Source: Ignavibacterium sp. (GTDB taxonomy: Bacteria; Bacteroidota; Ignavibacteria; UBA10030). Taken from it: a stretch of 64,000 nucleotides of DNA. The number at the start of each line of letters is the position of its first letter. The stretch's first letter is position 1. The notes beneath the pieces are model-generated. The model did not search any database, was not told the DNA's origin, and was given only the letters and a program-made list of their open reading frames with translations. The stretch spans positions 18,396 to 82,395 of the forward strand of contig JABRVW010000067.1 of the NCBI GenBank assembly GCA_039961715.1, in the 5' to 3' direction. Positions 6,122 to 42,333 of the stretch are shown one piece after another. The position numbers and the translations under genes were made by a program.

Positions 6122-6123
6122 GA

Positions 6124-8153: not shown

Positions 8154-8180
8154 TGAAATGGGTCCTTTGTGCGCGGCGTC

Positions 8181-13364: not shown

Positions 13365-13390
13365 GGTCGGGCACCAGAAGATGATTCCCC

Positions 13391-14053: not shown

Positions 14054-14065
14054 CTGCTTCCTCTC

Positions 14066-14114: not shown

Positions 14115-14164
14115 GGTCAATACGCGGCTTCTCCGTGCGACAACCGGAGCAATCCCGGCTGTTG

Positions 14165-15220
<1,056 letters not shown>

Positions 15221-17416: not shown

Positions 17417-17480
17417 GAAAGCACCGGATTCACCCAGAGTCTCCCCTGAGCTCTGAGGAATCGCGGTGCTTTCTTTTTGT
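17417..17480 (+). terminator. Rho-independent terminator-like long hairpin
   Basis: GAAAGCACCG (17417-17426) pairs with CGGTGCTTTC (17464-17473). Inner GATTC/GAATC and CAGAG/CTCTG pairs are present, followed by TTTTTGT. Confidence 0.55.
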
Positions 17481-17593
17481 GCTTTTGCAAGCTACACAAA
17501 ACGAGAAGATCACCCCGTGATGCGAGTCACATCCACCGCCGGCTTCCCTCCTTTTTACGTTGTAGCGTTCTGCCCCTGGCATGCGTCTCACCC

Positions 17594-20092: not shown

Positions 20093-20551
20093 TTACGGAT
20101 AGAACCGAAACGCTATTCCCCCTTCGAGGCCCAGGCCGACGACGGGGCTCAGAAAGAGCGCTGGGCCGATCTCGAAGGCAATGTCAAACGGATCCCGAGG
20201 AAAAATGTAATCAGCCCCGAACATGAACCGGGCACCGAGAGCAAGCGTGCTCTTGTCGTAGCGCGGTCCTCCAAACGACGCCGCACCGAGAAACACGCCC
20301 GGGCCATAGTAGAACGGGATGTCGGGATTTCTGAAGGCGTTGGAATGAAACAGGTAATCAGCACCGAACGCTATTCCGCCGAATCCTCCCCCCACAAATC
20401 CCTGAAGGGCTTCGGAAGGCTTGCTCCAGTACTTGACGGAGAATCCGGTCGGCGCTCCCACAATAAGCCCGATGCCCACCTTCTTCGTCTGAGCCATGCT
20501 CCCCACGGCAATCACGAGGCTCAGGACAACCATCGCAAGTATCCTCTTCAT
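20093..20551 (-). CDS. Small outer-membrane beta-barrel protein
   Basis: Start re-picked to MKRILAMVVLSLVIAVGSMAQ. ATGA overlap with the uvrA stop (20548-20551). Glycine/aromatic-rich strands; ends AFRFYP. Confidence 0.6.
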   Translation of the reverse strand: MKRILAMVVLSLVIAVGSMAQTKKVGIGLIVGAPTGFSVKYWSKPSEALQGFVGGGFGGIAFGADYLFHSNAFRNPDIPFYYGPGVFLGAASFGGPRYDKSTLALGARFMFGADYIFPRDPFDIAFEIGPALFLSPVVGLGLEGGIAFRFYP

Positions 20552-23418: not shown

Positions 23419-23492
23419 TGCCAAGTCTCAAAGATACGCAATTGCGGTTTTAGAGGAAACCGCGAAGAGTCAAAAGAATGGGTGCCGGACGA

Positions 23493-24359
23493 TCAGAACG
23501 ATACGGAGAGCGAAGCGGTCGGGACAAACTCGACAAAGCCAAGCGAACGAGCTGTGGGCACCAGCCGCGTTTCGAGGCGGACGGCCTCATTAAACGCTTT
23601 TGCCCCCAGCGCTGCATCCACCATGCTGAGAAGATGGTTCGCCACGATCATGGCCGCGGCAGTACGGGCGACGGTGTAGAAATCATTTGCTCGTCCGCGC
23701 ATATCCCTGTAGGCCTGGAACCGGGCAGACATGACTGCAAGGTAGTCCGTCCGCGAGGGGTCCCAATCCTCCCATCCCATATTGTACTGAAGGTACTTGC
23801 CGATCAGCTCGTAGTATTGCTGATCTGGCCTCCGGGGCAGGCGGTGGCTGAACCCGGTGCTTGGCACGCCTCCGATGTGCTGTTCCCACGCATTCAGCTT
23901 TTCCCAATCGACGCGATCCCAGGGCGGCACATTGGGATCAGAGTTCACCACGATCCCGCCCGGCGGCGGATTTGGATTTAACGAGGGCCCGTGCGTCTCC
24001 ATCCATTCCGCGTACCGGACGACCGACCAGTAGGCGTCTGCGTACCGTTGAAATTCCTCTGTCTGGCGATCTCCCTTTCCATCGTACGACGTATGCACAA
24101 TCCACAGGATCACCTCGGCGCCAAAGAACACCGCCGCCCTCCAGTACGCCTCCGCGTAGAACTCTCCCGCCCCGGGAATGATTGCAGAATACAGCGCGGC
24201 GCGCATGACAGATTTCTCCCGCGGTTGTTCAGCCCCCCTCTCTCCCACCGACGAATCAGCCGCAAGCGCAAGATCCAAACGAAGATTGCCGGTCAGCGGC
24301 GGGGGGAGTTGCGAAAGAGCAACCTGGGAGACGAGCAGGACGGCAATCACGTGCTTCAT
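23493..24359 (-). CDS. Hypothetical secreted/membrane protein with DUF5683-like N-terminal segment
   Basis: Start re-picked to MKHVIAVLLVSQVALSQ. ATGA overlap with the upstream stop. AALYSAIIPGAGEFY resembles DUF5683. Last gene of the porU-led operon. Confidence 0.55.
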   Translation of the reverse strand: MKHVIAVLLVSQVALSQLPPPLTGNLRLDLALAADSSVGERGAEQPREKSVMRAALYSAIIPGAGEFYAEAYWRAAVFFGAEVILWIVHTSYDGKGDRQTEEFQRYADAYWSVVRYAEWMETHGPSLNPNPPPGGIVVNSDPNVPPWDRVDWEKLNAWEQHIGGVPSTGFSHRLPRRPDQQYYELIGKYLQYNMGWEDWDPSRTDYLAVMSARFQAYRDMRGRANDFYTVARTAAAMIVANHLLSMVDAALGAKAFNEAVRLETRLVPTARSLGFVEFVPTASLSVSF

Positions 24360-27300
24360 CTGTCCCACCTCGCCAGTGGGGAGCCCCATTGGCTCAACTC
24401 GAAGCCGAACAGAATGCCGAAGTACCATCGCCATTCGCGGCCGTAACGGACCGGAGTCCCGGCGAAGGTTCTGGTGAAATCGTCAAACCCGTATGCGCCG
24501 GAGAAAAAAAAGCGTGTCGGATACGCGTAGAACGAAAAGGCCTCGAGCCTTACCTCAAAACCCGCATCCGTCTTCCAATCCGAAAAGTCCGGCATCTCCC
24601 CGGTCCATGCATTGCCGACGTCTGCAAAGACAGAGAAGAACAGTTTTGTGAAGGAAAGTTGGAGGATTCGAAAACCGAGATCGCGGCTGATCGGCAGGCG
24701 ATAGGTGAGGTTGGCCGCGGCATTGGTGTTTCCGCCAAGGGAGTAGAAAGGATATCCCCTCATGCCCGTCAGGCCACCTGCATAGAAGTCGAAAAATCCA
24801 TCCACGGTTTTCCCAATGATGCCTGCCGCGCGAACGCTGAGGGAAAGGGTGTGTCGGGGAAAAGGCAGCGCAAGGTACTCATTCCACTGCAATTCGGCCC
24901 GATGGAATGCGAACGTCTGGTACACCGGGACCGCTATTCCGGAAGAAATGTCGAACTCCCCCTCGGGATTGAACTTGTTGATCTCATAGACATAGCGCAG
25001 AAGCAGGGAGCGGCCCGTGGGGTTGATCTCTGAGTCCACTCCCTGGTCGCGATAATCTCCGCTTACCTGAACACCAAAGGCATTGCCCACGAAATAGGTG
25101 TTCCGAAACGCAGGAACGAGCGTGACAGGAGGATTGGGATTGATGAACGCTCCGATATCGGCGCTGTACCTGCTCAGAGTGTACGATGCCTTGAGGTGAG
25201 TTCGTTCCTGAATCACCGGCTGGCGAAGCGAGAGCGTGAATTCAAAGAGATTGTAGGTGATTTCAGGGGAGATCGGCTCGGGAGAGGGCTCAAGGAAGAA
25301 CGTCGTGGACGTCTTTCGCGTGAGATTGTACACCTCCAGGGTCAGCGCCGGTTCGAGACCCGCCGCAGAGAACAACGGGAGCTTGTCACGATACTCGAAA
25401 ACCAGTGCAAGATCGCGCTCGAATCTCCGGTTCACCATGGCGCCGGCAAACAGGCTCAGTTTGTCGAGCATGTCGTACGAACTCGCATACAATCCGGCCT
25501 TGAGCGCGTCCAATCCCCGGTTGAGCGGGTTGTAGGTGTCGACGCGGAGAACCGGAAAAATGCTCAGGCTTGAAAACGTGTGACGGTAGTCGCGACCAGT
25601 CATCCCGTTACCGGGATCCGCAAAGCGTGCCTCATCGTCGGTCGAAGGCTGCTGGTCCCGGGTGAGCGTTGATCCACGTACGGACTCGAGCCTCTGATCC
25701 GACGCCGGCATCCATGCAACGGAGTATCCTGAGGAAGAGTACGATGCATAGACCAGATCGCCGGCGGCATTCACCGACGGGAGGAACGCTCCCCCAAGGG
25801 CATTGGTAACCCTCGATGTCTTGCCGGTCTCAGGGTTCATGGAATAGATGTTGAAGATGCCCGTCCGGTCGGAGGAAAAATACAGCAAACCATCTGGTGA
25901 AAAGGAGGGATTGCGGCAGTCACCATCCGCCGCGATGATGTGTACTTCGCCTCCGAGGGAGCTTACCTGAGCAAGCGATTGTCCGTGACCATTGGAATAT
26001 CCAAAGACGATTCGCGTGCCATCGGGCGACCAGGCCGGGGTATAGACCTGGGTTCCGGGAGGGACATCGGTGAGACGACGCACATCCGTTCCGTCAAGCG
26101 CGCACGTCCCGACATTCAGCGTGCCGTCAGATCCGTACGCAAAAGCAATCCGCGTCCCGTCGGGGGAAAGGCGGGGATTAAAGGCGCGCAATCCATGCGT
26201 GATCCGGACCTCCTTGCCGGTCAGGAGATCGTAGGAATAGAGATCCGACCAGCGGGACCAGTGCGGGTTGTCGCCTGAGATCCTTGCGTACACAAGAGTG
26301 CGCCCATTTGGCGTTACGGAGAGCGTCGAGCGCACGTTGTGAACCACGAGCTTCGATTCCTTCCGTTCCAAATCATACCGATAAACCGAACTTGCTCCAA
26401 AAGAGTCCTTCCCCTTATTGGAAACGTAGAAGACGGATCTTCCGTCCGGATGAAACACCGGATAGAAGTTCCCAAAACCCTCCTCCTCGATCCGGATTCC
26501 CTCCCTGACGGGTCCGATGGATTCCTTCACGGCACGATAGAGCTCCTTCTTTGCATCACGCCATTCGTTGTAGAGGTCTTCTCCGCTCTTTCCGAGGACA
26601 TCGACAATGGCTCCATCTATCGTGATCCGGGAAATCGACGCCAGAGAACGAGAGATTCGTTCCAGCGTCTCAGGCCCGTAGGTTTCCGCTATGTATTGTA
26701 CAATTGAGAACCCGGCATTGTAGGCCGATTCGTTCCCCAGGCTGTTCTTGCCGAACACTGCCATCTCCTCCCACGAGAGAAGACGATCTTCCAGAATGCT
26801 CATGCGAAGCATCATGTCCCGATGCGTGTCCCAGAAATCGTAGGTCAGGGAAGGATGATTGTATTGGGCCGTTCCCTCCGCGAACCAGCTTGGTACCAGG
26901 AAGAACGAAAACGGATACGAAACGAGGACGTTTGGAAAACCGTAGAGGACATCCGGCCTCCGTTCGGATTCGTACCCGAACCATTGCAGATACAGGGCCG
27001 GCAGCCGGCGTCCGAGTTTCATGGCCGTCTGAATCTGCACAATGTGCACAAACTCATGGGTCACTACATTCTGGAGCCAGGGATGGATTCCGCGGAGTTC
27101 AAAGTCCATCGCCGGAGCCCAGATTTCGATCTTGTTATCGAAGAAATAGGCCGCCCCGTTCGAATAATCATCGTGGTCGCGAACAACGATGCTGACTTTC
27201 TGATCCGGCTCATGGCGGTACATCCCCGTAACCGGAACGTAGGCCGATTCAGCAATCGCCGCCACGAGTTGTCCTGTTCTGAGGGCTCCGTCGTGGACAT

Positions 27301-27430
27301 GTACAAGGAAATGCTCGGTCTCCAACGTTCTCCAGGTTAGCTCAGTGTGCGGCATGGCATTTTGTGCTTCGGAGAGCGAGGCAGAGACGGCCACAACCAC
27401 AAAAAGTATGGCTCCCATTCGTCCTGTCAT
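24356..27430 (-). CDS. Fusion protein: peptidase-MA-like domain + PD40/TolB-like beta-propeller + Omp85-type C-terminal barrel
   Basis: Signal peptide. HEFVH (HExxH) plus downstream WFAEGTAQY. At least five PD40 units (HPDGRSVFYVS, TPNGRTLVYA, SPDGTRIAFA, SPDGTRIVFG, SPDGLLYFSSDR). C-terminal FYAGGLTGMRGYPFYSLGGN and aromatic-rich strands resemble bacterial surface antigen (D15) barrels. Confidence 0.7.
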   Translation of the reverse strand: MTGRMGAILFVVVAVSASLSEAQNAMPHTELTWRTLETEHFLVHVHDGALRTGQLVAAIAESAYVPVTGMYRHEPDQKVSIVVRDHDDYSNGAAYFFDNKIEIWAPAMDFELRGIHPWLQNVVTHEFVHIVQIQTAMKLGRRLPALYLQWFGYESERRPDVLYGFPNVLVSYPFSFFLVPSWFAEGTAQYNHPSLTYDFWDTHRDMMLRMSILEDRLLSWEEMAVFGKNSLGNESAYNAGFSIVQYIAETYGPETLERISRSLASISRITIDGAIVDVLGKSGEDLYNEWRDAKKELYRAVKESIGPVREGIRIEEEGFGNFYPVFHPDGRSVFYVSNKGKDSFGASSVYRYDLERKESKLVVHNVRSTLSVTPNGRTLVYARISGDNPHWSRWSDLYSYDLLTGKEVRITHGLRAFNPRLSPDGTRIAFAYGSDGTLNVGTCALDGTDVRRLTDVPPGTQVYTPAWSPDGTRIVFGYSNGHGQSLAQVSSLGGEVHIIAADGDCRNPSFSPDGLLYFSSDRTGIFNIYSMNPETGKTSRVTNALGGAFLPSVNAAGDLVYASYSSSGYSVAWMPASDQRLESVRGSTLTRDQQPSTDDEARFADPGNGMTGRDYRHTFSSLSIFPVLRVDTYNPLNRGLDALKAGLYASSYDMLDKLSLFAGAMVNRRFERDLALVFEYRDKLPLFSAAGLEPALTLEVYNLTRKTSTTFFLEPSPEPISPEITYNLFEFTLSLRQPVIQERTHLKASYTLSRYSADIGAFINPNPPVTLVPAFRNTYFVGNAFGVQVSGDYRDQGVDSEINPTGRSLLLRYVYEINKFNPEGEFDISSGIAVPVYQTFAFHRAELQWNEYLALPFPRHTLSLSVRAAGIIGKTVDGFFDFYAGGLTGMRGYPFYSLGGNTNAAANLTYRLPISRDLGFRILQLSFTKLFFSVFADVGNAWTGEMPDFSDWKTDAGFEVRLEAFSFYAYPTRFFFSGAYGFDDFTRTFAGTPVRYGREWRWYFGILFGFELSQWGSPLARWDR

Positions 27431-28089
27431 CGGACTCGCACCAGCAGCCGTTTCGTTTGGTTCAATTCCAACACAACGGAGTACACGTACGTATTAGCCC
27501 CGACGGTAAACTCGAGGTAGGCAAGGTTTTGAATTCTGTAGTTTCCAAGAAAAGCATCGGCTCCGCTGTAGAGTGGGGCGGGGTAGTAGCCAACGGGGAG
27601 AAGATTGTCGGGGATGATGAAAACCCCGTTGGTGTCGGTGGTTGCGGAAACATGCCCGTCGACCACTACGGTGTACGAGTGACGTGTTGACCCGTTGACA
27701 GTGTATCGCACGAAATAGATGCCGCTCGGCACAAGGGCGCCTGCGCTGTTCCGTTTGTTCCATTGCACGAGGAGGCTGGTCCCGACAGGCGTTCCCGCGT
27801 ACAAGGACCGGACATGACCACCGGCCAGATTGTACACGTCGACGAGAACAAACTCCCCCGGCGATTGCAGAACATACTCCCTCTGGGGAACGGGCGACCC
27901 GCTGACGTACTCGGTTCCGTAGAAGAGCCGGATTCCGAGTCCGGCAATTGGATTATCCAGCCCGTCGAGAACGGTCCCGACAATTCTGTATCCCTCGGTT
28001 CCTTCACGCACGTCGAGGAGGTTTATGTCGCGGCAACCGCTCACGAGCGCCACGGTGAGGCCCAGAACAAGTCGCATAGACAATTTCAT
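27427..28089 (-). CDS. Lipoprotein with internal FlgD-Ig / T9SS-CTD-like beta-sandwich
   Basis: Lipobox LVSGC. The internal segment FVLVDVYNLAGGHVRSLYAG...SGIYFVRYTVNGS resembles por-secretion-tail sandwiches. ATGA overlaps on both sides. Confidence 0.6.
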   Translation of the reverse strand: MKLSMRLVLGLTVALVSGCRDINLLDVREGTEGYRIVGTVLDGLDNPIAGLGIRLFYGTEYVSGSPVPQREYVLQSPGEFVLVDVYNLAGGHVRSLYAGTPVGTSLLVQWNKRNSAGALVPSGIYFVRYTVNGSTRHSYTVVVDGHVSATTDTNGVFIIPDNLLPVGYYPAPLYSGADAFLGNYRIQNLAYLEFTVGANTYVYSVVLELNQTKRLLVRVR

Positions 28090-31000
28090 TTGACAACCGC
28101 AATCTTGATCACAACGGCTTCCTGTTTTCCGCCGGCAACTGCCTCGATGCGTGCAAGGTACACCCCGCTGTCAATACCGGACACATCCCAGGACAGTTCC
28201 TCATCCGCTCCTCCAGACGATGTCCCCTGCAATTCAGCAACGATCCTGCCGGCAAGGGTCATGATCGTGACAGAGATGCGCGCGGGATCCGACGTATAGT
28301 AGCGAATCCTCGTCGTTTGGCCGTACACGGGATTGGGCCAATTATAGACCCTTTCCCGCGGAAGAAACACGTCCGACAGCGGTGTTGTTCCGCTCGCGGA
28401 GAGCATGGAGGCGGAGACTTTCTCCGGCGATCCTCGCTCCTGCAGCCATTGACCTTCGATGTCCGTAAATGGCCGCGCGATCTCCCACACATCCAGGCCT
28501 CCGTTGCCGGAGGACACAGCAAATCGTACGTCTCCGGTGGGAGAACGAAACAGGGCGGGCGTCGAAGGCGAGACGCCACTCACCTGCAGGCTTAGATCCC
28601 GGATCAACCGACCGTTCCCCGAAAGCGCATGGAGGACTCCGTCCGTCGTCAGCACGATCACATCGAGCTTGCCGTCCCCCGATACGTCGGCAACAAGGGG
28701 CTCCGTTGCAATGTCCGTGCTGAACTGAACCGGATATCCGTCGAGAAGGAATCCGCGCTCATTCACGGCCAACAACCACGATTCCGCCGCGACGAGGACA
28801 TCAAGCACTCCGTCGCGATCGAGGTCTGTCGGAACCACATGCCGTACTGTACCCAACGTGCGGCTTAGAGGAAATCGTTGGAGATCGATTCGAAAAAAAG
28901 AGCCAGGCACCAAGTACCTGTATGAGGAAAGCACAAGCGGGTCCTCAAGGACCAGGAGAATATCCGATCCCCCGAACCTCACTCCCCTCAAGACGTTTGC
29001 TTGCGGGGCGGAGAGAGGAACCGTCCACGTTCCATCAGTGAGCGCGGAAGGCGTCAGGGCAACAATGGAAGGTGTGCCGGAGGACGGCAAGGCGATGACC
29101 TCCGCGATGCGATCAGGCGCTATCGCCTTCAGATGATGTGTCCCATCGTCGAGTCGAATCGTCACGAGGTTACCGCCTTGCGTGCCTGCAAATGCATGTG
29201 GGATACCTGCTGAATCCGCAATGATCGGCCCCGCTGTGACAGGCTCGCCGGGAGCAAAGGCGGAAACCGTGGTAAGATCAAAGAGGCCATCACCGTTGGA
29301 GTCAGCGATCGTTCGGACCGTAATGGCGCTGTCGCTCACCGTAACAAGCGAGGTCGGAACACCCTCCCGCACCGCCATATGTCGAACGGACGGTTCCAAT
29401 CCGATCAACCCGTTCGCCGAATCGGTTCGTGACACCCCTGTCAATGTGACTGAAGAAACTCCGTTCACGCCTGCCCAGTACAATCCGGAATCCGTAACAG
29501 CGATGCGCACGTGTTCAGGTCCGCCAATGGGCGTCGTTCGGAACACGCGCCGCACAAGATCCCCACCCTGGGAAACAAGCACAGTCATGACCGGTCCCCG
29601 CGGACTGAAGTTCCGGACTCGTACGAACGTTGGAAATCCGGAATTCGCCCTGCTGTCGGGATACGTTGAGCTCCCAAACTCGTTGGTGTAGACGGGCGAA
29701 GCGTTTCCGCCAAACCAGAAATCCAGCGGCCACCCGTTCTCTGTTCCGCTCCCCGGTTCGAGGAGATCGTACGGAACGCCAATGTCCTGAGATCCGTCCG
29801 CTTCCTCGAGATCCACCGTCCGCCTGTGTGGATCGGCATTTAAGGTGTTGGTTGAGAGTTTCTGTGCCAGGTCAGATTCATCGATGTGCCAGATCAGGAT
29901 TCCTCCGCCCTCATAGCCCGCCTCCAGCGTCGATCCGGGAAGGGCCCAGTCGAAGTCTTCAGCGTCTATGAGGGAGCCATGGATGGCACTGAGGTCGTTG
30001 AATGCAAACCCTGCCGTATCCCCGCCAAAATGGAGGACCTCGATCTGTCCGTTCCGGAAGAGGCTCAGGGTCTGCCCGTTCCCGAGCGGATCACGGCTTC
30101 GATTCTCAACCAGAAAGTACTCTGTTGCGGAGACCGGGATCTTGTATACTGTATCCGGCCCGGCTGAAGCACCGCTTGCGGCGGGAACGGACAACGAAAC
30201 GCTTCCGGCATCAACGGTGACGGGTGTGGACCATCCAAGTAAGATCTTTTCCCACGCCGAAGGCTCGGGGGGAAGAACACCCTGATAGGCAAAGATGGCC
30301 GCTCCGTCCATCAACCCGAACTGGCCGATGCCCGAGCGTCCCGTGGAGGTGTCAAACAGGTCCGGCAGGCCAAGATAGCTTCCAAAGGACGCGGCCAGAA
30401 GGCCGTTGATTCCCAACTGAAGCGTATCGGGCGTGGAACCCAACGCAAAAACGCGCGTCTCTGTCTCGGGCAGGATCATGCTGTTGGTGATGTGGAATCC
30501 CCCGCCGTTGACGGGGACGCCCGGGTACAGGGGATCCTTCAGAAACGACCTCAAGGTTTGGAGATTGATGGTAATGGATGGAATGTCATGGGGGGCGGGA
30601 TCGAATCCCAGCAGCTGGACAAGATCAATGTCCCTGCCGGCTCCTGCATGAAAAACGATGAAAGCATCATACGAGGAAAACGGAAAGGCCGGTCGTGCGG
30701 CATCGGCGGCCTTCCAACCGTCAACCATCAATGCGGCCAGTTTGCCCACATCATCGTTTCCTTGAGGCGAGTATGCGGCCATGGAGTCGGGAAGCGTGAC
30801 CACCACCGGAAACAGTTCCCCCTGAACATCCAGGGCGCCGTTTGAGACTTTGTTGAAGTAGTTCGCGAGGAACAACAGTTTTGAGGCAAAGTAGGCCGAG
30901 TCGTGAGGCGGGGGATCGATCTGGAGCGCCGGGCCCGACGTGAGAAATCTTCCCGTGCCGCTTGTTCTCGGATCCATGTCCTCCTGAAACTCCACCATCA

Positions 31001-31145
31001 GACCAAGGACGCGGACTGTCTGCGAAGCGGTCATCGCAGCAGAAACGTGGATGAGCGGACGATGACGCAGTAGCATCGGGTGTTGGGATGCCGCTGTCGA
31101 GAAACAAAGAACGACCGTCAGGGCAACAAACCGAATCTGTCTCAT
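28086..31145 (-). CDS. T9SS cargo-type protein: immune-inhibitor-A (M6)-like domain lacking HExxH + FG-GAP/VCBS-like repeats + C-terminal sorting domain
   Basis: Start re-picked to MRQIRFVALTVVLCFSTAASQ. LLAASFGSYLGLPDLFDT...GIGQFGLMDG aligns to the M6 HEFGHxLGLPDLYD...G.G.W.LM.G region. D.D.DG repeats present (DLDRDGVLDVLV, DVSGDGKLDVIVL). The tail NWPNPV...GVYLARIEAV...IKIAVVK is a T9SS CTD. Confidence 0.75.
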   Translation of the reverse strand: MRQIRFVALTVVLCFSTAASQHPMLLRHRPLIHVSAAMTASQTVRVLGLMVEFQEDMDPRTSGTGRFLTSGPALQIDPPPHDSAYFASKLLFLANYFNKVSNGALDVQGELFPVVVTLPDSMAAYSPQGNDDVGKLAALMVDGWKAADAARPAFPFSSYDAFIVFHAGAGRDIDLVQLLGFDPAPHDIPSITINLQTLRSFLKDPLYPGVPVNGGGFHITNSMILPETETRVFALGSTPDTLQLGINGLLAASFGSYLGLPDLFDTSTGRSGIGQFGLMDGAAIFAYQGVLPPEPSAWEKILLGWSTPVTVDAGSVSLSVPAASGASAGPDTVYKIPVSATEYFLVENRSRDPLGNGQTLSLFRNGQIEVLHFGGDTAGFAFNDLSAIHGSLIDAEDFDWALPGSTLEAGYEGGGILIWHIDESDLAQKLSTNTLNADPHRRTVDLEEADGSQDIGVPYDLLEPGSGTENGWPLDFWFGGNASPVYTNEFGSSTYPDSRANSGFPTFVRVRNFSPRGPVMTVLVSQGGDLVRRVFRTTPIGGPEHVRIAVTDSGLYWAGVNGVSSVTLTGVSRTDSANGLIGLEPSVRHMAVREGVPTSLVTVSDSAITVRTIADSNGDGLFDLTTVSAFAPGEPVTAGPIIADSAGIPHAFAGTQGGNLVTIRLDDGTHHLKAIAPDRIAEVIALPSSGTPSIVALTPSALTDGTWTVPLSAPQANVLRGVRFGGSDILLVLEDPLVLSSYRYLVPGSFFRIDLQRFPLSRTLGTVRHVVPTDLDRDGVLDVLVAAESWLLAVNERGFLLDGYPVQFSTDIATEPLVADVSGDGKLDVIVLTTDGVLHALSGNGRLIRDLSLQVSGVSPSTPALFRSPTGDVRFAVSSGNGGLDVWEIARPFTDIEGQWLQERGSPEKVSASMLSASGTTPLSDVFLPRERVYNWPNPVYGQTTRIRYYTSDPARISVTIMTLAGRIVAELQGTSSGGADEELSWDVSGIDSGVYLARIEAVAGGKQEAVVIKIAVVK

Positions 31146-31177
31146 CCGAACCCGCCAGGTTCCGCGCAACTCCCCGA

Positions 31178-32290
31178 TCAGAACGGCGATTGCTCCCACG
31201 TCATCATCAAAGTGAATCGAAGCGTTTCTCCGAGGGGATGATTTCGCTCAAACGCGTCGATATAGCTGAAATCGAAGCCGTAGATATCATATCGCAATCC
31301 AGCTCCGAACGTCATAAACTTTCTGTTTCCGTATTTCGGATCCTCGTAGAAGTACCCGATCCTCATCGCGATGAGTTTCGGCGAGCCATACCAATATTCC
31401 AATCCCATGCTCGTGGTGATATCGCGAAGTTCCTCCCTGAGGGATTTGTCCACCCACGAATAGTAAACGGCCCGATAGAAAGGATCTGTCTTCCCCTTGC
31501 TGTTCCGCCGGACGAGGAGTTTGTTGAAATCGAGAATATAGGTCAGATTATTGAATTCGCTCTGAATGACGTCGACGGAGAATCCCAGACGAAAATTCAT
31601 CGGCAGAGGGTCCGCCTGCTCCTCGTCGATGTAGGTCAGGCTCGGACCAATGTTCGAAAGGTTCACACCGATCCCGACTGCATCACGGAGGGTCGTTTCG
31701 GTGAACGGGATTGTCACGTTCTGGGGCCGGTAGAGAAGCCCGATATCGAAACTGATGCCCGAGGCTGTACCGGTTCCCTTTTCCGCCTCGGTACCAAACG
31801 GTGCAAGGCGGCTGTGAATGAAGCGGGCGTTCACTCCCAGCCCGAGTTCATCCAGCACCCGCGTTGCATAACCGCCGGTGACCGCGAACTCGTATCCCTT
31901 GAAGCGGCCGATCTCTTCGGGACCCGTGGATGCCGTGCGGATGAATTCGCCAAGATTCAAATAGGTCAATCCTGCGGAGATCATGCCGTCGAACTCCGGT
32001 ACTTCATGCTTGAAGACCGTGTGAGCAATCCACAAGTCCGAAAGGCCGAACCCGGGCAGCCAGTTGGCATGGGAGATCGCAAGCTCGGTCCCCTTCTGGT
32101 AGGCATAGCCGGCTGGATTCCAGTGAATGGCCCACACATCATCGGCGAGGCCTCCTCCGCCTTCGCCCATTCCGCTTGCCCGTGAATTCGGGGCGATCAG
32201 AAGAAACGGGACCGCCGAGGTTGATACCTGGGCGACCAGCGAACCCGCCGAAACGCACAGGAGACAAAAGACAAAGCCAGGCTTCTTCAT
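31178..32290 (-). CDS. porV: T9SS outer-membrane shuttle protein PorV (PorV/PorQ family)
   Basis: Start re-picked to MKKPGFVFCLLCVSAGSLVAQ, with GAGGAAGG upstream. N-terminal SRASGMGEGG...DVWAIHWNPAG motif and a beta-barrel of about 370 aa. Lies directly downstream of porU, the arrangement known in Bacteroidota. Confidence 0.8.
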   Translation of the reverse strand: MKKPGFVFCLLCVSAGSLVAQVSTSAVPFLLIAPNSRASGMGEGGGGLADDVWAIHWNPAGYAYQKGTELAISHANWLPGFGLSDLWIAHTVFKHEVPEFDGMISAGLTYLNLGEFIRTASTGPEEIGRFKGYEFAVTGGYATRVLDELGLGVNARFIHSRLAPFGTEAEKGTGTASGISFDIGLLYRPQNVTIPFTETTLRDAVGIGVNLSNIGPSLTYIDEEQADPLPMNFRLGFSVDVIQSEFNNLTYILDFNKLLVRRNSKGKTDPFYRAVYYSWVDKSLREELRDITTSMGLEYWYGSPKLIAMRIGYFYEDPKYGNRKFMTFGAGLRYDIYGFDFSYIDAFERNHPLGETLRFTLMMTWEQSPF

Positions 32291-32361
32291 AGAACCTTCC
32301 TCAGTGCACAATCAATAAATATAGGATTAATCGACGAACTTCAAAAATCTGCCGATGACTC

Positions 32362-35300
32362 TCACCGGATCCTTGCGAGCTTCCCGATCACCTCCCGTAC
32401 CTTCGTTCTTGCAAGATCCCGCGTGACGATCTTGTAAAGATACACTCCATTGGCAATGTGATCGCCATTCTGATCGCGTCCGTCCCAGGGAACGGCAACA
32501 AATCGGTCCGTCACGGCCGGCGCGTTCAGGCGGGCGATCAGCCTCCCGGAAACCGTGTAGATTCTGATCTCCACGTCGATGGGGCTCGTGGAGCTACGCT
32601 GAAACGTGAAGGTCGTGGATCCTGAAAACGGGTTCGGAACGTTGAATGCGTTGTATACGTCGACGTCCGAGACCCCTTTAACATCAAACCAGACCGCTTC
32701 CGACGCGGCGTTGTTGTACGTATCCCACGCCGTCACTGTCAGAAGCTGTCTGCCCTCGGGGAGGCCGCTCAGCGAGTACCGAATCTCTCCGCTTTGAAAC
32801 GTGTCGAGATCGCCTTTGTAGTACTCGTTCAGTGTCAAGGACACGCCTGTACTGCCGAACGTGGCTTCAAGGCGGTGCCCCACGCCGGCCGTGGAGGTAT
32901 TGATCCCGTTCTCATCGAACAACTTCACGATCAGCTCCGGGTCGGGGGGCACGATGTCTCCTGATCGGAATGATTCGTCCCCAAGGAATACGGAGATCTG
33001 CGGCCCGGTGGTGTCCGCCGACGCAGTCGAATCACTGCCCGCGACCAGGACATTCTCGGTATATCCTGCCACGTGGCCCAAGGACCCGGCCGCGTAAAAC
33101 GCGATGCGTGCCGGCGTCGTCTCGTACGAGATATCCCGCGGGATCGGAACGATAGCCTGGAACCGGCCGTCTCTCACGCTCACCTCTCCTCTATAGAGCA
33201 GACTCCCGGTGACCTCAAACTCGAAGCCTCCCCACTCCGGCACAACGATACGACGCCGGGCATCAAACACTTCCAGCAAAGCCGTCCCTGTAAAATCCGT
33301 CCACGCCGTGCTATCGGGCCTCAGCACACTCCCCGTAACCCCTGCCTTCTGGAGGGCTTTCACCTGTACCGGCGCGTTCACCGGATTCCCGTTCAGGCTG
33401 TCGATACGACCGGAATCAAAAGGCAGATTGAGCCGCATGGTGGGGTCACCGAGGAGATGGTACTTGAGGTCATTGAGCGAGAAATGGATCTGTTTCGTCC
33501 TGAAAAAAGCATCGCCAATCCGCGGCGGACGGCCATCGGGATCCCTCCGGAAAAATTCCGTGAAGAGCGCCTTATTGAATTGTGAGTTGTCGAACGAATA
33601 AACGGCTCTCGAGGCTGTGACCACGGCGATGGCGCCGCCCTCCCTCATCACGATCATCTTCTCGCCCGCGCTGACCTCGCCGGGGAGGTCATAGCGTGCG
33701 AAGTCACAGGTCGCGGCCACAAGGAGAAACGGCCTGTCGGCGTTCCTCAGCTTCGGCAGGCTTTCTTCTCCGACGAACACCGCCTCGTGTGCCCATGATT
33801 GAGGGTTTCCGTGTCCGGTGTAGTTCAGAATCAGCGTCCCCTCGTTCATCGCACGGATGATCGCTTCATTGGCTTCAGGCTTTCTTCGCCCTGACGAGCT
33901 GTTGACCGTCGGATACTCGACGATATAGATCTTCCGCTTGTCGATCCCATCCGGCGTGTTCAACCGTGACAGCTCATCGGCCTGCATGGTGTGGAGACCT
34001 CCGTCGTCTCCGGTTGACGTGAGCCCGTCGTCGGCCACAAACGTCACCCGGTTGCGCCAGGATCCCGAGGCGGCGGACAGATCATGGGAGATGATCTTGT
34101 CAACGACTGCGCTCGCCTCCTCGACCGAAGACACGGGAAGCCTTCCCAGGGCGAGGGAAACGCGTTGGTTGCCGGCGGTGAGCCTTGCCAGCACGTCATC
34201 GCTCGCGTAGGAATTGATCTGATGAACCGATTCTGCGGACTCATACGGCGGGATTCTATTCGGTCGCGATTGGGCAATCCCCCTGTAATCGTAATGCCCG
34301 TCGCCGAACAGCAGAACGTACCTGGGAGAAGTGGTCCATTGCAGTGTCGCAAACGCCAGAAAATCCCTGATGGCGAGGGGGTCCGCCAACCCGCCCCCGA
34401 ATTCGTCCACAATGGCTTCCAGAGGAATCACCACGACTGACAACGAGTCGTTCGTTCTTCGGTGCCCGGCAAGCCGTTCGGCTTCCGCGGCAAACTCGGC
34501 CGGCGTGATGATGATGAATTCTGCACCGTCCGTATTCTCGCGAAGACCGGCATGAGTCACTTTCGTGATCTCCGCCGGGGTCTTCAAGCCTGCAGGACCT
34601 GCCGCAAGAATCATCCGCGGAGCACCGGCAGTTCCTGCCATTTGAAACGTGTATGTTCCCACACCCGAAGAGCCCCCAACCACCCTCACCACGCTGTCGT
34701 GGTCGGTGACGTCAAAGACAAAAGGTGCCCCTGACGCAAACCCCGCAAGCGTGAATTGATTGACGGTGGAAGTATCCGGCGTCGGAAACATCAGCACATC
34801 ATTGACCGCCACAAGTTTTCGTCGATAATGGATCTCGATCCAATTCACCCACCCAATCCCGGTTTGCGTCTGGAACTCGATTCGAACATTGCTCTGATTT
34901 CCGCTCAAGGCCCCCGTCCGGATGAACGAAGCAACCGGGGCGACATAGGCATAGTTGGTCTCGAGCGACGTCAAGCTCACCGGAAAAATCGTAATCGGGC
35001 TTCCCAACGTCTGGCCGGTTTCACTAATCACAAACGATTCAGTGCGGCCTGTCCTTCCCAGCACCGCGATTTTGTAGGTCACAGGGCGTGTCGCGTCGAC
35101 GCCAGGAAGCGGAATGCCGTAGGTCCGCGCGGGTGCTTCTGGGGTGAGCGGAAGACCGAACCATTCCCGTCCGGACTGGATCAGATTCACCCTGTCTTCC
35201 TCAACGAACTCCATACCTGCGACGTCTTGTACAATAGAGGGGGCCGGGTTGTTCAGGGATGCCACCGAATCCATCTCTCGTCCCGCAAGTCCTCCAAAGG

Positions 35301-35790
35301 TGAGAAAATAGACATTATGCGTCGTGTAGGGATTCACAGTGTGGGAAAACCCGGAGCCGGCGGAGTACCTCCATTCCGAAACGCCCTTTCCGAAGAACAC
35401 AATCGAGTCTTCAGGATCGAAAATTCCGTTTCCATTCAGGTCCACGATCATACGCCGCACTTCCTGGAGGCCATTCGGTCGCGGCTGTGCCGGATCTTCG
35501 GGAAGGGGCTGTCCGCCGTTTCCGAAGAGGCGGAAGGATTCGAAATTCAGAAACGCTTCCGGCATCACTCCAGCCGCCGCGAGCATTTCCCTGTCAAGTT
35601 TGTACACGCCGGTTTCATGGACGACGATCTTGTACCACTCTCCCTGACTGAACGATTGTTCTGAACGATTCTCGTTGCGGATTTGGCTGGCCGTTCTTCT
35701 TCCGCTATCGCGACCAAAGCGGAGATCGTCTCCGTTTGCGGCGAAAAGGCCCAACGGGACCAGCAAGAGAACCGTTGCACAGAGGCGCAT
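32362..35790 (-). CDS. porU: T9SS sortase PorU (peptidase C25 family)
   Basis: About 1140 aa. The ATG at 35790 gives the signal peptide MRLCATVLLLVPLGLFAANG. Gingipain-type dyad YTGHGN / AATCDF. C-terminal CTD-like sandwich (VPNPFSG...GVYLYKIV). Confidence 0.85.
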   Translation of the reverse strand: MRLCATVLLLVPLGLFAANGDDLRFGRDSGRRTASQIRNENRSEQSFSQGEWYKIVVHETGVYKLDREMLAAAGVMPEAFLNFESFRLFGNGGQPLPEDPAQPRPNGLQEVRRMIVDLNGNGIFDPEDSIVFFGKGVSEWRYSAGSGFSHTVNPYTTHNVYFLTFGGLAGREMDSVASLNNPAPSIVQDVAGMEFVEEDRVNLIQSGREWFGLPLTPEAPARTYGIPLPGVDATRPVTYKIAVLGRTGRTESFVISETGQTLGSPITIFPVSLTSLETNYAYVAPVASFIRTGALSGNQSNVRIEFQTQTGIGWVNWIEIHYRRKLVAVNDVLMFPTPDTSTVNQFTLAGFASGAPFVFDVTDHDSVVRVVGGSSGVGTYTFQMAGTAGAPRMILAAGPAGLKTPAEITKVTHAGLRENTDGAEFIIITPAEFAAEAERLAGHRRTNDSLSVVVIPLEAIVDEFGGGLADPLAIRDFLAFATLQWTTSPRYVLLFGDGHYDYRGIAQSRPNRIPPYESAESVHQINSYASDDVLARLTAGNQRVSLALGRLPVSSVEEASAVVDKIISHDLSAASGSWRNRVTFVADDGLTSTGDDGGLHTMQADELSRLNTPDGIDKRKIYIVEYPTVNSSSGRRKPEANEAIIRAMNEGTLILNYTGHGNPQSWAHEAVFVGEESLPKLRNADRPFLLVAATCDFARYDLPGEVSAGEKMIVMREGGAIAVVTASRAVYSFDNSQFNKALFTEFFRRDPDGRPPRIGDAFFRTKQIHFSLNDLKYHLLGDPTMRLNLPFDSGRIDSLNGNPVNAPVQVKALQKAGVTGSVLRPDSTAWTDFTGTALLEVFDARRRIVVPEWGGFEFEVTGSLLYRGEVSVRDGRFQAIVPIPRDISYETTPARIAFYAAGSLGHVAGYTENVLVAGSDSTASADTTGPQISVFLGDESFRSGDIVPPDPELIVKLFDENGINTSTAGVGHRLEATFGSTGVSLTLNEYYKGDLDTFQSGEIRYSLSGLPEGRQLLTVTAWDTYNNAASEAVWFDVKGVSDVDVYNAFNVPNPFSGSTTFTFQRSSTSPIDVEIRIYTVSGRLIARLNAPAVTDRFVAVPWDGRDQNGDHIANGVYLYKIVTRDLARTKVREVIGKLARIR

Positions 35791-36110
35791 AAACGAAAAA
35801 AGCCGGTGAGGGAACAATGCCCGCTCACTCGGCTTCACAATCCTTCCGACATGACAAAGGCTGTTCCCGAAAGCAACCTGAGCAAACGTGGGTGTTTGAT
35901 CAGGAACGAACCTTTACCAATGCGCGATAGGATCTTTCTTCTGTTATGAATTTGTACGCTTTACATCAATGTACGCCATAGCGTTTCGATAATCAACATG
36001 TTCGCCGGGGTCATACGGTGTGTACCTGGAACAGTCAAGATCGTCCTTGCAGTTCTGTCAAAAAAATGCTAAATTTTCTCTGTTTTTCTCACATTTTTAC
36101 TATATAAGGA

Positions 36111-37589
36111 ATGTCAAGGCCCCTGAATATTCTGTTTGTTTCCAGTGAAGTTGAGCCGTTCGCCAAGACAGGGGGGCTCGCCGACGTTTCCAGCGCTCTT
36201 CCCAAGGCCATCAAGGAATGCGGGCATGAAGTTCGGATCATGATGCCCCGCTACCGCTTCATCAGTGAGCGCAAGTTCAAGCTCCATGACATCATACGGC
36301 TCAGGGACATCCCTGTCCCGGTCGGGAACCAATCCGAGTTAGCCAACGTCAAATCTTCGTTTATCAGTAATCTGAAGGATAAGGTTCAAGTTTATTTTAT
36401 CGACAATGCCAAATATTTTGGCCGGGACGGGATTTACCAGAGTCCCGTTGGCAAGAAGGATTACCAGGACAACGATGAGCGGTTTATTTTCTTCTGCCGT
36501 GGCGTTTTGGAAACTCTGAAGCGGCTGGGTTGGCAACCGGACATCATTCACTGCAATGACTGGCAGACGGCTCTCATTCCCGCCTACATGAAGACCCTGT
36601 ATGCCTCCGATCCGTTCTTCAAGAGCATCAAGACGGTGTTTACGATCCACAACATGGCCTACCAGGGCTCTTTTCCTGCCGAATCGTTCAAGAAATCAGG
36701 CCTTCCCAAAGAGTTGTTCACTCATGAGCAGGCGGAAGCATACGGCAGGTTTAACTTCCTGAAAACCGCTCTGGCTTTCGCGGACGCCATTACCACCGTA
36801 AGCCGGAAGTACGCCGATGAGATTTGTACCTCCCCGGACCTGGGAGCGGGCCTGGATGGATTTCTGGCAACGCGACGAAAAGACCTCCACGGCATTCTGA
36901 ACGGGATTGATTATCACCAGTGGAATCCGCTGACCGACGAGCACATTTACCGGAAGTACGACGCCAAGTCGATCGAGGCGAAGGTGGACAATAAGAAGGC
37001 TCTCGCTCAGAGGTTTGGTCTCGCGTACGACGAGCGTATACCCCTGATCGGCGCGATCTCAAGGCTCGTGGAACAGAAGGGATTTGACCTCGTGCTCGAG
37101 GCAATGGATGATCTCATGAAGCTCAACGTGCAGTTTGTTCTGCTTGCCTCGGGGGAGACAAAGGTGGAAAAGAAGTTTGAGGCATTTCAAAAGAAGTACG
37201 CCGATCGCCTGGGGTTGTTTTTCGGCTTCGACGAATCCCTGGCGCACTTGATTGAGGCCGGAAGCGACATGTTTCTCATGCCGTCGCGGTACGAGCCTTG
37301 CGGACTCAACCAGATGTACAGCATGCGATACGGCACGGTGCCGATCGTCCGCGCGACCGGCGGTCTTGATGACACGGTGGAGGACCATGCGGGCAACGGG
37401 AAGGGAACGGGATTCAAATTTGAAAGATATGACGCCAGGGAGCTTGTAAAAGCTGTGCAGAGGGCGATCAAGGTGTACCAGCAACCGGACGAATGGAAGA
37501 AGTTGATGAAGAACGGTATGGCCCGTGATTTTTCATGGGTGCACTCAGCCCGGCAGTACGGCAGTCTCTACAAAGAACTGCTGAAGTGA
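36111..37589 (+). CDS. glgA: Glycogen synthase (ADP-glucose type)
   Basis: FVSSEVEPFAKTGGLADV (KTGGL motif), GT5 architecture, 492 aa. Confidence 0.95.
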   Translation: MSRPLNILFVSSEVEPFAKTGGLADVSSALPKAIKECGHEVRIMMPRYRFISERKFKLHDIIRLRDIPVPVGNQSELANVKSSFISNLKDKVQVYFIDNAKYFGRDGIYQSPVGKKDYQDNDERFIFFCRGVLETLKRLGWQPDIIHCNDWQTALIPAYMKTLYASDPFFKSIKTVFTIHNMAYQGSFPAESFKKSGLPKELFTHEQAEAYGRFNFLKTALAFADAITTVSRKYADEICTSPDLGAGLDGFLATRRKDLHGILNGIDYHQWNPLTDEHIYRKYDAKSIEAKVDNKKALAQRFGLAYDERIPLIGAISRLVEQKGFDLVLEAMDDLMKLNVQFVLLASGETKVEKKFEAFQKKYADRLGLFFGFDESLAHLIEAGSDMFLMPSRYEPCGLNQMYSMRYGTVPIVRATGGLDDTVEDHAGNGKGTGFKFERYDARELVKAVQRAIKVYQQPDEWKKLMKNGMARDFSWVHSARQYGSLYKELLK

Positions 37590-38164
37590 GCATTGAGACG
37601 ACAGCGTTGTTTCTCGACCGCGATGGTACGATCAACGTCGAAGCAGAGTACCTCTCGGATCCGGATCGCGTGGAACTGATTCCCGGGTCGGCGGAGGCGA
37701 TCCGAGAAGCGAATGAGGCCGGGATCCGGGTGATTGTCATCACGAATCAATCAGGCGTCGCCCGCGGACTCCACTCCGAAGCCGATGTTCTCGCCGTGCA
37801 CCGAAGACTTGAGGAGCTTCTTGCCGCGCACAGGGCAAGACTCGATGCCCTGTACTACTGTCCGCACCATCCCGACGTCGGTTCCCCACCGTACAGAAAA
37901 GTTTGCAATTGTCGCAAACCGAAGACAGGAATGCTCGAACAAGCGGCAAAATCACACGGCATTGATCTTGCATCATCCTTTGTGGTGGGAGATAAATGTT
38001 CCGATATTGAGGCAGGGAGAAACGCCCGATGCGGAACCGTGCTGGTGCTTACGGGATACGGGCGGACTGAGAGCGGGCTCTGCCGACCCGACCATGTGGC
38101 AGACAACCTGTATGCGGCATGGCACCATATCCGAGGCATCCTCCAGTCCCGGAAAACTAAATGA
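37586..38164 (+). CDS. gmhB: D,D-heptose 1,7-bisphosphate phosphatase-like HAD-IIIA phosphatase
   Basis: GTG at 37586 overlaps the glgA stop (GTGA). LFLDRDGTIN motif I, zinc-site-like YYCPHHPD...CNCRKP, GDKCSD motif. Confidence 0.8.
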   Translation: MSIETTALFLDRDGTINVEAEYLSDPDRVELIPGSAEAIREANEAGIRVIVITNQSGVARGLHSEADVLAVHRRLEELLAAHRARLDALYYCPHHPDVGSPPYRKVCNCRKPKTGMLEQAAKSHGIDLASSFVVGDKCSDIEAGRNARCGTVLVLTGYGRTESGLCRPDHVADNLYAAWHHIRGILQSRKTK

Positions 38165-39318
38165 AACCTTTCCCGATTCATACAACGATCCCTGCGCTTG
38201 TCGTCGGGCTGTTCATACTCGCCGGATGCGTGAATGAACCCGGCATCGTCGGATCAGGCCTGGTTCCCGGAGGCGACTTTCTCAGGACAGACAGTCTTGT
38301 CCTTCGGCCGCGGACAAGCTTCAGCGTGCTCACCGTTCCCGACACCGTGAACAGCCTGCAGACCGTTGTTGCCATCGGCAGGACACCTTTTGCAGAGGCA
38401 TGGGGTATTACGCTCTTCGAGAACTTTGGCGGCATCTATGACAGCATTGCGGTATTGACCGCCGAACTGCGACTGCAGACCTCGTTCCATCAGGGTGACT
38501 CTGCCGGACAGGTCACGCTTGCGGTCAGGAAGGCCTTGAAGACCTGGGCGGCACATTCCATCACGTATGCAGATCTTCGCGCGCCGGGCTTTTACGCGGA
38601 CCCCCCGCTTTCGACCCACGACCTGGGATCCATCGGCGACACCGTGGACATTGCCATTCCCCTTGACACGGCGCTCGTCAGCTCGTGGTTCCGCTCCGAT
38701 AGCACCAACCCGAACTACGGCATCGTCCTTGAGCCAACCAACAACACCGTGATCAAGGGATTCATCAATCCACGTCTGGTTATTACCTACATTCCCGCCG
38801 GCACCTCTGATCCGGATACGGTAACGTTTGCCTCCGCGAACGGGAATTACGGCTTTGTCCTCGGAGGCATCGACACATCTGCATTTCAAGACAGCGTTGC
38901 AGTCCATGTTCGCGCAGGAGCGGCCTCGCGCGCAATCCTCGGGTTCGACATCACCGGCCTCCCACCTCACTCCGCCATTCATCGCGCCCTGTTGGAGGTC
39001 TCAGCTGACGAGTCCCTCTTCGATCGTTCCTCCAATATGCGGGATTCCCTCATGGCGACGTTCCGCGATCAGCTTGGATTCATTCTGCAGTTTGAAGAAT
39101 TGAGCACTGCGGGGGGGAACGGGTCTGAGCGCGTGTACACGTTCAACGTCACCTCGTTCGTTCAGTTCTGGGTACAAGGCACAGGAATCCCCGAGATCGG
39201 ACTGCGCGCCGTCGCTGAGCGAAACGGGATTGAGGGCTTCGTCCTCCACGGATCGGCCGCGGCGGACTCCACACGAAGGCCGCGCCTGCGCATCCTCTAT
39301 TCTGCGACACGCCAATGA
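38161..39318 (+). CDS. Lipoprotein with two DNRLRE-like modules
   Basis: Lipobox ILAGC. Segments TAELRLQ...W..HSITY and AILGFDITGLPPHSAIHRALLEVSAD resemble DNRLRE-type domains. ATGA overlap with gmhB. Confidence 0.6.
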   Translation: MKPFPIHTTIPALVVGLFILAGCVNEPGIVGSGLVPGGDFLRTDSLVLRPRTSFSVLTVPDTVNSLQTVVAIGRTPFAEAWGITLFENFGGIYDSIAVLTAELRLQTSFHQGDSAGQVTLAVRKALKTWAAHSITYADLRAPGFYADPPLSTHDLGSIGDTVDIAIPLDTALVSSWFRSDSTNPNYGIVLEPTNNTVIKGFINPRLVITYIPAGTSDPDTVTFASANGNYGFVLGGIDTSAFQDSVAVHVRAGAASRAILGFDITGLPPHSAIHRALLEVSADESLFDRSSNMRDSLMATFRDQLGFILQFEELSTAGGNGSERVYTFNVTSFVQFWVQGTGIPEIGLRAVAERNGIEGFVLHGSAAADSTRRPRLRILYSATRQ

Positions 39319-40547: not shown

Positions 40548-40572
40548 CAGCCACAAAGGAGATCACAGAATA

Positions 40573-41844: not shown

Positions 41845-41845
41845 C

Positions 41846-42283: not shown

Positions 42284-42333
42284 CCGCGTTGCGGTCCCCG
42301 TTCCGTCTCATCCTCACTTCCAGAGCATCCATC

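Follow-up and report, generated by a model that had tools for sequence, protein, structure and literature searches.

In Porphyromonas gingivalis the attachment complex of the T9SS (type IX secretion system) is made up of PorU, PorV, PorZ and PorQ, of which PorU and PorZ keep their C-terminal domains (CTDs) and dock on PorV and PorQ; porZ and porQ do not lie next to porU and porV in that organism. PorV is taken here to be a FadL-like barrel of 14 strands. Outer-membrane assembly provides a second point of reference: in Escherichia coli, BepA, a soluble M48 protease that contains TPR repeats and is a protein of its own, works with BAM, the machinery of beta-barrel assembly. An extended BAM of Flavobacterium johnsoniae contains BamA, BamD, BamG, BamH, BamM and BamP, combines an Omp85 barrel with a FadL-type barrel of 14 strands (BamG) and cell-surface subunits, and is reported not to co-purify with any T9SS component (PMC12611786). 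Here these systems are compared with a gene cluster in a window of 64,000 nucleotides (the whole stretch of DNA analysed) from Ignavibacterium sp., positions 18,396 to 82,395 of contig JABRVW010000067.1 (GenBank assembly GCA_039961715.1), in which porU and porV are followed by four genes designated g3 to g6. The best reading of this locus is that it would represent an ancient PorV-centred outer-membrane module, present in bacteria of the Fibrobacterota-Chlorobiota-Bacteroidota (FCB) group outside the Bacteroidia model organisms.

The cluster comprises six minus-strand genes in the order porU, porV, g3, g4, g5 and g6 (35790..23493), and all junctions were read directly:

35790..32362, minus strand, porU (1142 amino acids)
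32290..31178, minus strand, porV (370 amino acids)
31145..28086, minus strand, g3 (1019 amino acids)
28089..27427, minus strand, g4 (220 amino acids)
27430..24356, minus strand, g5 (1024 amino acids)
24359..23493, minus strand, g6 (288 amino acids)

A spacer of 71 nt separates the porU stop (32362) from the porV start (32290) and one of 32 nt separates the porV stop (31178) from the g3 start (31145), and the three remaining junctions are ATGA stop/start overlaps (g3/g4, 28089-28086; g4/g5, 27430-27427; g5/g6, 24359-24356). Independent gene calls on public contigs of 99% identity gave identical boundaries and the same six protein lengths. The initial annotation of this DNA, made without database searches, had described the same layout, including the 32-nt gap and the three overlaps.

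Conservation of this order was followed across the FCB group with g5 as the query. More than 3300 homologs of g5 were found; a library search yielded 984 clusters at E ≤ 1e-30, and every named cluster sampled belonged to an FCB phylum. Full-length homologs of 30-45% identity were recovered from KSB1, Electryonea, Marinimicrobia/Fidelibacterota, an 'FCB group' metagenome-assembled genome (MAG) and Calditrichota, and further ones in the same range from Rhodothermales, Latescibacterota, Fibrobacterota and Chitinivibrionales. Orthology of the cluster proteins across phyla was confirmed by BLAST. The genes porV, g3 and g5, usually with g6, are contiguous in eight phylum- or class-level FCB lineages with varying flanks, and porU heads the cluster in five lineages. 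Representative gene orders outside Ignavibacteria are as follows:

Electryonea, 'FCB group' MAG and Calditrichota: porU-porV-g3-g5-g6, then a gene for ~250 amino acids
Rhodothermales: porU-porV-g3-g5-ahpC-g6
KSB1: porV-g3-g5-g6, then a second g6-like gene
Fidelibacter multiformis and two Marinimicrobia: porV-g3-g5-g6-bamD

In Calditrichota (L088, 13683-15407) and KSB1 (L085, 13116-14792) two g6-like (DUF5683-type) genes stand in tandem after g5; Electryonea is also listed with a g6-like paralog after g6. Genes of similar size stand after g6 in L084 and L086, with no BLAST match to g6. Among named organisms, Rhodothermaceae bacterium RA and Fidelibacter multiformis both have g5; the cluster as a whole was checked in the latter, where it was confirmed, and in an Ignavibacterium album MAG.

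A scan of species-representative genomes with the g5 alignment located at least 586 stretches that hold a relative. The best 80 of these, from Ignavibacteria-type MAGs with g5 identities of 89-47%, were used as the within-class sample, in which the closest relative was 'Bacteroidia bacterium HBSIN02'. Adjacency was counted by tblastn with the window proteins, using only loci whose contig extends far enough. The gene porU preceded porV in 59/59 testable loci, porV preceded g3 in 64/64, g3 preceded g5 in 78/79, and g6 followed g5 in 69 of 71. Median gaps over the 80 loci were 122 nt for porU-porV, 72 for porV-g3, 9 for g3-g4, 3 for g4-g5 and 30 for g5-g6; the porU-porV junction was the longest and never overlapped. 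Because the tight spacing recurs across 80 related loci, it goes beyond chance. Adjacency of uvrA to g6 is confined to the closest relatives and is lost already within the class, and 38 Ignavibacteria-type loci have a divergent glgA upstream of porU; within-class synteny alone is therefore weak evidence of function. The glgA gene of the window (glycogen synthase, 36111-37589, plus strand) is divergent from porU across a 320-nt spacer (35791-36110).

The stable core of the cluster is porV-g3-g5, usually with g6, and porU often adjoins it but can be separated from it, in agreement with the greater length of the porU-porV spacer. The initial annotation had taken porU and porV together as the anchor and had named conservation of the six genes across FCB genomes as a check, which g3, g5 and g6 pass; the anchor proved to be porV, with g3, g5 and g6 kept beside it in eight lineages and g4 missing from them outside the class (see below).

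The two genes that give the cluster its T9SS identity were assigned with confidence. PorU scored 931.7 bits against NF033707 (cut-off 420), with profile positions 2-1093 of 1095 covered, and matched Peptidase_C25 at E 1e-89; the YTGHG and AATCDF motifs (His/Cys dyad) are present in the translation, and a CTD of its own scored 25.4 bits against TIGR04183 (cut-off 23). These profile matches make the assignment of porU secure: it encodes a T9SS sortase that contains a C25 domain and carries a type-A CTD. PorV scored 255.2 bits against NF033710, marginally over the cut-off of 250, 297.9 bits against NF033709 (PorV_fam) and 107.7 bits against Pfam PorV; its sole relative in the PDB was F. johnsoniae PorV (6h3i_F, E 5e-40), and at E 10 it matched no chain of BAM entry 9n2d, which contains BamG. 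On this evidence BamG was rejected as the identity of the barrel, and with it the reading of the cluster as a BAM locus, and the assignment as a real PorV, the outer-membrane barrel of the T9SS, is likewise secure at the level of hidden Markov model (HMM) and structure-database matches. Against the PorQ model the same protein scored 78 bits (cut-off 220). The porU and porV calls of the initial annotation were thus upheld. As in the attachment complex of P. gingivalis, PorU and PorV are both present, here as adjacent genes; unlike that complex, the window cluster includes no PorQ, and the complex as described contains nothing that corresponds to g5 or g6.

The product of g3 consists of a signal peptide, an inactivated M6-like domain (approximately residues 40-545), FG-GAP repeats and a type-A CTD (936-1013). 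It scored 785.4 bits (cut-off 600) against NF052323, a family curated by NCBI as T9SS-dependent M6-like inactivated metalloproteases. Matches to FG-GAP_3 (31.2 bits) and TIGR04183 (27.1 bits, cut-off 23) were above their cut-offs and the match to Pfam Por_Secre_tail (24.5 bits) was under its cut-off of 27. The residues at the position of the M6 HExxH motif are AASFGSYLGLPDLFD, the Ignavibacteria consensus there is A[AS]SxGS[YFH]LGLPDLFD, and HExxH was present in 0/77 orthologs read, those of other phyla included. All g3 orthologs match NF052323, at 314-629 bits and mostly under the 600 cut-off in other phyla, and all score above the TIGR04183 cut-off (27-38 bits). No sequence relative of g3 was found among PDB entries, and the folds of g3 and g4 were assigned from HMM matches alone.

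Since g3 is exported with a type-A CTD, it is classed as a predicted Sec-exported T9SS substrate, with an M6 protease site that is uniformly dead. As a non-catalytic, CTD-bearing protein with propeller-type repeats it recalls PorZ, from which it differs in that its main domain is a dead M6 protease; its match to the PorZ model (15.6 bits, cut-off 260) is confined to the CTD, and the candidate identification of g3 as PorZ was rejected for that reason. The CTD-bearing, propeller-type pseudo-peptidase of the initial annotation was correctly recognised, and the repeats are of the FG-GAP kind; the protein is not wholly unknown, since NCBI curates its family. It shares with NF052323 the loss of HExxH and the type-A CTD; the name of that family describes the protein only, and no paper was found on the function of the family or on its fixed place after porV.

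The g5 protein has a signal peptide followed by a gluzincin peptidase, a PD40 beta-propeller and an Omp85-type barrel (AlphaFold2 (AF2) model, mean predicted local distance difference test score (pLDDT) 77), located as follows:

26516..27358, minus strand, peptidase domain of g5 (residues 25-305)
27044-27058, minus strand, HEFVH motif of the peptidase (residues 125-129)
25709..26497, minus strand, beta-propeller of g5 (residues 312-574)
24407..25564, minus strand, C-terminal barrel of g5 (residues 623-1008)

Peptidase_MA_2 matched the isolated domain at 34.9 bits (cut-off 32.4) and the full-length protein at 30.2 bits, below the cut-off; it matched 23/23 g5 orthologs. Neither the 63 close homologs nor the 23 orthologs, which come from several phyla, show any change at H125, E126, H129 or E185; the peptidase is therefore under selection. 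E185 is the likely third zinc ligand, and the gluzincin is predicted to be catalytically intact. The peptidase-domain profile found no relative among PDB sequences.

PD40 matched the propeller with 78.7 bits, and TolB structures were its top Foldseek matches (E 1e-13). The resemblance ends at this domain: g5 has no tol-pal neighbours, the propeller makes up only a quarter of the protein, and the score of 104.3 bits against the TolB equivalog TIGR02800 is far under its cut-off of 343, so g5 was rejected as a TolB. Labels of g5 homologs in public records vary between 'biopolymer transporter Tol' and 'PD40 domain-containing protein'; the 'Tol' label is a mis-annotation, and this widespread name is corrected here.

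In the AF2 model (DSSP) the C-terminal barrel has 16 long strands. It carries GMRGY at residues 889-893 and FADVG at 935-939, with the Gly, Tyr and Asp invariant, and thus shares with the Omp85 proteins BamA, TamA, FhaC and PlpD a 16-strand barrel, the RGY of loop 6 and the FxDxG motif. Foldseek matched g5 to F. johnsoniae BamA (9n2d_A) at E 1e-7, and in a profile comparison that reached only a marginal E (0.07) the orthologs aligned with the barrel of TamA through both the loop-6 and the FxDxG motif. The Pfam Omp85 family (PF01103) matched 10/23 orthologs (best E 2e-7) and did not match the window copy at E 0.1. Unlike other Omp85 proteins, g5 has the gluzincin and the PD40 propeller in place of POTRA domains: no POTRA family match was obtained before the barrel, and the linker at residues 575-622, modelled with low confidence, contains no alpha/beta unit resembling POTRA. 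We know of no described Omp85 protein with a gluzincin-propeller-barrel architecture. The peptidase-PD40-Omp85 fusion proposed in the initial annotation holds at the domain level; in HMM searches PD40 was recovered and Peptidase_MA_2 was recovered with the domain alone, and the Omp85 family missed the window copy.

The g6 protein (671 homologs found) has a signal peptide and a DUF5683-like motif (residues 49-96); its core is helical, and a beta-hairpin with a final Phe forms the C terminus. The score against DUF5683 (PF18935) was 38.2 bits (cut-off 26.7) over profile positions 3-50 of 151, that is 48 positions or about one third of the profile, in keeping with the original description of this protein as DUF5683-like. 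The AF2 model (pLDDT 85.8) gave no PDB fold match by Foldseek (best E 0.06, template modelling (TM) score below 0.25), and the g6 profile gave no match among PDB sequences. The top hits of g6, PorM and GldM, had E above 0.06 and TM below 0.2 and were treated as noise.

The remaining gene, g4, encodes a 220-residue lipoprotein with a variable insert, in which the lipobox LVSGC is followed by RD. By eye, the signal peptide of most orthologs closes with a Cys that precedes R-D or E-R-E; a simple lipobox pattern was found in 34/45, with some of the matches on an earlier Cys. FlgD_ig (18.6 bits) and TIGR04183 (20.5 bits) were both under their cut-offs, and the search of PDB sequences returned nothing useful. 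The lipoprotein part of the original description of g4 stands, and its CTD-like sandwich is not supported. The gene lies between g3 and g5 in about 49/79 Ignavibacteria-type loci and in no sampled locus outside Ignavibacteria; it is a lineage-specific extra limited to part of the class and is not co-conserved with porU and porV.

Because the order persists across eight lineages with tight spacing or overlaps and changing flanks, the cluster is treated as a functional unit tied to PorV. As a general claim, it is somewhat probable that the locus encodes proteins that work as partners of PorV in the T9SS; the specific steps below are much less certain. The alternative set of T9SS partners suggested in the initial annotation survives in reduced form, with identities for six proteins at the domain level, g4 removed from the set and porV rather than porU-porV as its anchor. 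No paper describing the cluster, g5 or g6 was found in a literature search, and as judged from the sequences the novelty would lie in the extension of a known secretion system by undescribed, deeply conserved candidate partners.

Since PorU and PorZ keep their CTDs and dock at the surface, it is reasonable to expect the same fate for g3, which may retain its CTD and remain at the cell surface, docked on a barrel of the PorV type, as a binding subunit with no catalytic role. The g5 protein would be placed in the outer membrane with its peptidase and propeller facing the periplasm, by analogy with other Omp85 proteins, and the g5 barrel may be a partner for the terminal hairpin of g6. The three proteins g3, g5 and g6 would act jointly with PorV after translocation; their task might be the trimming, release or clearance of cargo or spent CTDs, or keeping PorV available for further rounds.

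Several observations weigh against a PorV-dedicated module. Co-transcription and complex formation are predictions from gene order. Four lineages have porU apart from the cluster (Fidelibacterota/Marinimicrobia, KSB1 and Fibrobacterota are those named), the order in Fibrobacterota is porV-g3-g5 without g6, and one Latescibacterota locus has a more distant g5-like gene beside a nuo operon, with no porV. In Fidelibacterota/Marinimicrobia g6 is followed by bamD (TIGR03302, 155 bits in L081), and in Marinimicrobia mlaEFD lies just upstream of the cluster; the placement of bamD and mlaEFD would point toward general envelope biogenesis. Finally, rpiB and glyA, which are housekeeping genes, stay near the cluster across phyla, and part of the gene order may accordingly be kept by inheritance and not by function. 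The bamD genes are located as follows:

13812-14564 of locus L081, bamD
14148-14933 of locus L083, bamD
13863-14657 of locus L087, bamD

In L081 and L087 (Fidelibacter and one Marinimicrobia) bamD overlaps the g6 stop by 4 nt, and in the third locus it merely follows g6.

This apparent translational coupling of bamD to g6 opens the main rival reading, which was absent from the initial annotation: that g5 serves outer-membrane biogenesis or quality control as a BamA/TamA-like Omp85 protein with a built-in protease, assembling or policing large or abundant barrels, possibly those of the T9SS. PorV would then be a client or structural partner of g5, as BamG is of BamA. We regard this as a serious possibility, if a doubtful one. 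It agrees with the Omp85 fold and both signature motifs of the g5 barrel, with the positions of bamD and mlaEFD, with the Latescibacterota g5 homolog away from porV, and with the FadL-type barrel and surface subunits of the F. johnsoniae BAM (PMC12611786). It agrees less well with other features of the cluster: a T9SS signal is present on g3, PorV and not BamG is the barrel partner, porU as a T9SS-specific sortase stands at the cluster head in five lineages, and g5 is without the POTRA domains that Omp85 insertases use in substrate handling. Moreover, bamD is not adjacent in Ignavibacteria (none lies in the window cluster), Rhodothermales, Calditrichota, KSB1 or Electryonea, the last three being listed with a second g6-like paralog after g6. 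The pairing of a zinc metalloprotease with an Omp85 machine recalls BepA and BAM, from which, as far as we know, g5 differs in that its protease is of another gluzincin type and is fused to the barrel.

The same F. johnsoniae machine bears on the PorV-module reading in another way. Its pairing of Omp85 and FadL-type barrels with surface partners is a structural precedent for a g5-PorV-g3 assembly, and the likeness extends to the locus, where an Omp85-type barrel gene travels with PorV and the surface-destined g3, and where bamD adjoins the cluster in Fidelibacterota/Marinimicrobia. It differs in that PorV matches no 9n2d chain and that uvrA, not bamD, comes after g6 in the window; PorV, g3, g4 and a g6 profile, the queries compared with PDB sequences for this purpose, matched no BAM subunit. 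From this precedent an unlikely but concrete proposal can be drawn, namely that PorV, CTD-anchored g3, g5 and g6 would form one T9SS-dedicated outer-membrane supercomplex of BAM-like build, with an Omp85 barrel, a FadL-type barrel and a surface subunit. It would be the ancestral FCB machine that handles translocated cargo, for instance by freeing it from PorV or by breaking down cleaved CTDs; in Bacteroidia PorZ and PorQ would have taken over its role or replaced it.

Two further explanations are less likely than either the PorV module or biogenesis. The better of them, itself improbable, makes g5 a self-exporting, type Vd-like surface protease for nutrients and g3 an ordinary cargo, with the adjacency to porV reflecting shared regulation only. 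An N-terminal enzyme joined to a C-terminal 16-strand Omp85 barrel does recall, from general knowledge, the type Vd autotransporter PlpD, the g5 peptidase is predicted to be intact and many T9SS cargoes are hydrolases; however, g5 has no patatin passenger domain and, unlike PlpD, no POTRA between passenger and barrel. Nutrient hydrolases also usually vary in copy number and position, whereas a single g5 ortholog of 30-40% identity is fixed beside porV across phyla, and a g3 that is dead in every lineage would be odd for an enzyme of nutrient acquisition. Least probable is the absence of any functional link, with synteny inherited in a slowly rearranging part of FCB genomes, as the divergent glgA in 38 loci and the two unknown genes, TPR gene, rpiB and glyA near the cluster in both the window and Fidelibacterota/Marinimicrobia might suggest, since flanks differ between phyla while porV-g3-g5 stays contiguous, co-oriented and a few bases apart or overlapping, and the uvrA adjacency is gone already within the class.

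Two hairpins were recorded at the cluster:

23444-23463, minus strand, weak hairpin between g6 and uvrA (GCGGTTT, 6-nt loop, AAACCGC; stem 7 bp)
32352..32368, minus strand, terminator-like hairpin and T-run found by pattern scan, overlapping the porU stop at the start of the 71-nt porU-porV spacer

The expression unit had originally been ended at the first of these. That end was not sustained: the hairpin is without a T-run and was not called by the terminator scan, and uvrA starts only 74 nt past g6 on the same strand, so that the 3' end of the transcription unit is undefined. A DUF3996 gene of 152 amino acids (20093-20551, minus strand; called on 99%-identical contigs, with coordinates mapped from L093) overlaps the uvrA stop by 4 nt, and the same-strand run may therefore continue past uvrA. 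The second hairpin is a lead only, because terminator-like sites in the region are at chance level (14 found, 15.5 expected). Scans for sigma-70 promoters and terminators gave counts at or below chance with patterns that may not suit this lineage, and Rfam returned no RNA family within the window.

Near the cluster, positions 38161-43638 (plus strand) of the window hold two proteins of ~400 amino acids without a Pfam match, a TPR protein, rpiB (~41830-42265) and glyA. Comparable blocks occur in L081 (1-5017), L083 (1-2433) and L087 (1-2235), the unknown proteins sharing only 22% identity (E 2e-7). In Fidelibacter the order TPR-rpiB-glyA-nrdR stands directly before porV, and in the Marinimicrobia loci mlaEFD lies between. 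The Latescibacterota g5-like protein (1267 amino acids, L090 10001-13804), which follows the nuo operon in the only sampled neighbourhood to break the pattern, may represent a paralogous subfamily.

Elsewhere in the window the following were found:

12144-13427, minus strand, 427-residue protein with a T9SS plug first domain (PF17116, 50.7 bits, cut-off 23.9) and an AMPK1_CBM (glycogen-binding) domain; a second T9SS-related gene, ~10 kb from the cluster
17477-20030, plus strand, extracytoplasmic function (ECF) sigma factor, 179-residue protein without a family match and DUF4097 'toastrack' protein; a trio kept in four relatives and resembling a sigma/anti-sigma unit
3659-9683, minus strand, MacB-type efflux operon with two MacB_PCD/FtsX permeases, an ABC ATPase, an HlyD-family adaptor and an outer-membrane efflux protein
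56363-58003, minus strand, purK, a 181-residue purE (AIR carboxylase) and a second, 356-residue protein whose AIRC domain is confined to the C-terminal half

The mechanism of the T9SS is known almost entirely from Porphyromonas and Flavobacterium, and in hundreds of genomes from elsewhere in the FCB superphylum porV is accompanied by three unstudied, conserved proteins of the envelope. If g3, g5 and g6 work with PorV, they would be added components of the secretion system and may bear on the departure of cargo and spent CTDs from PorV. Should BAM be their partner instead, they would constitute a new kind of protease-armed Omp85 machine. Either reading can be tested in cultured carriers of the cluster.

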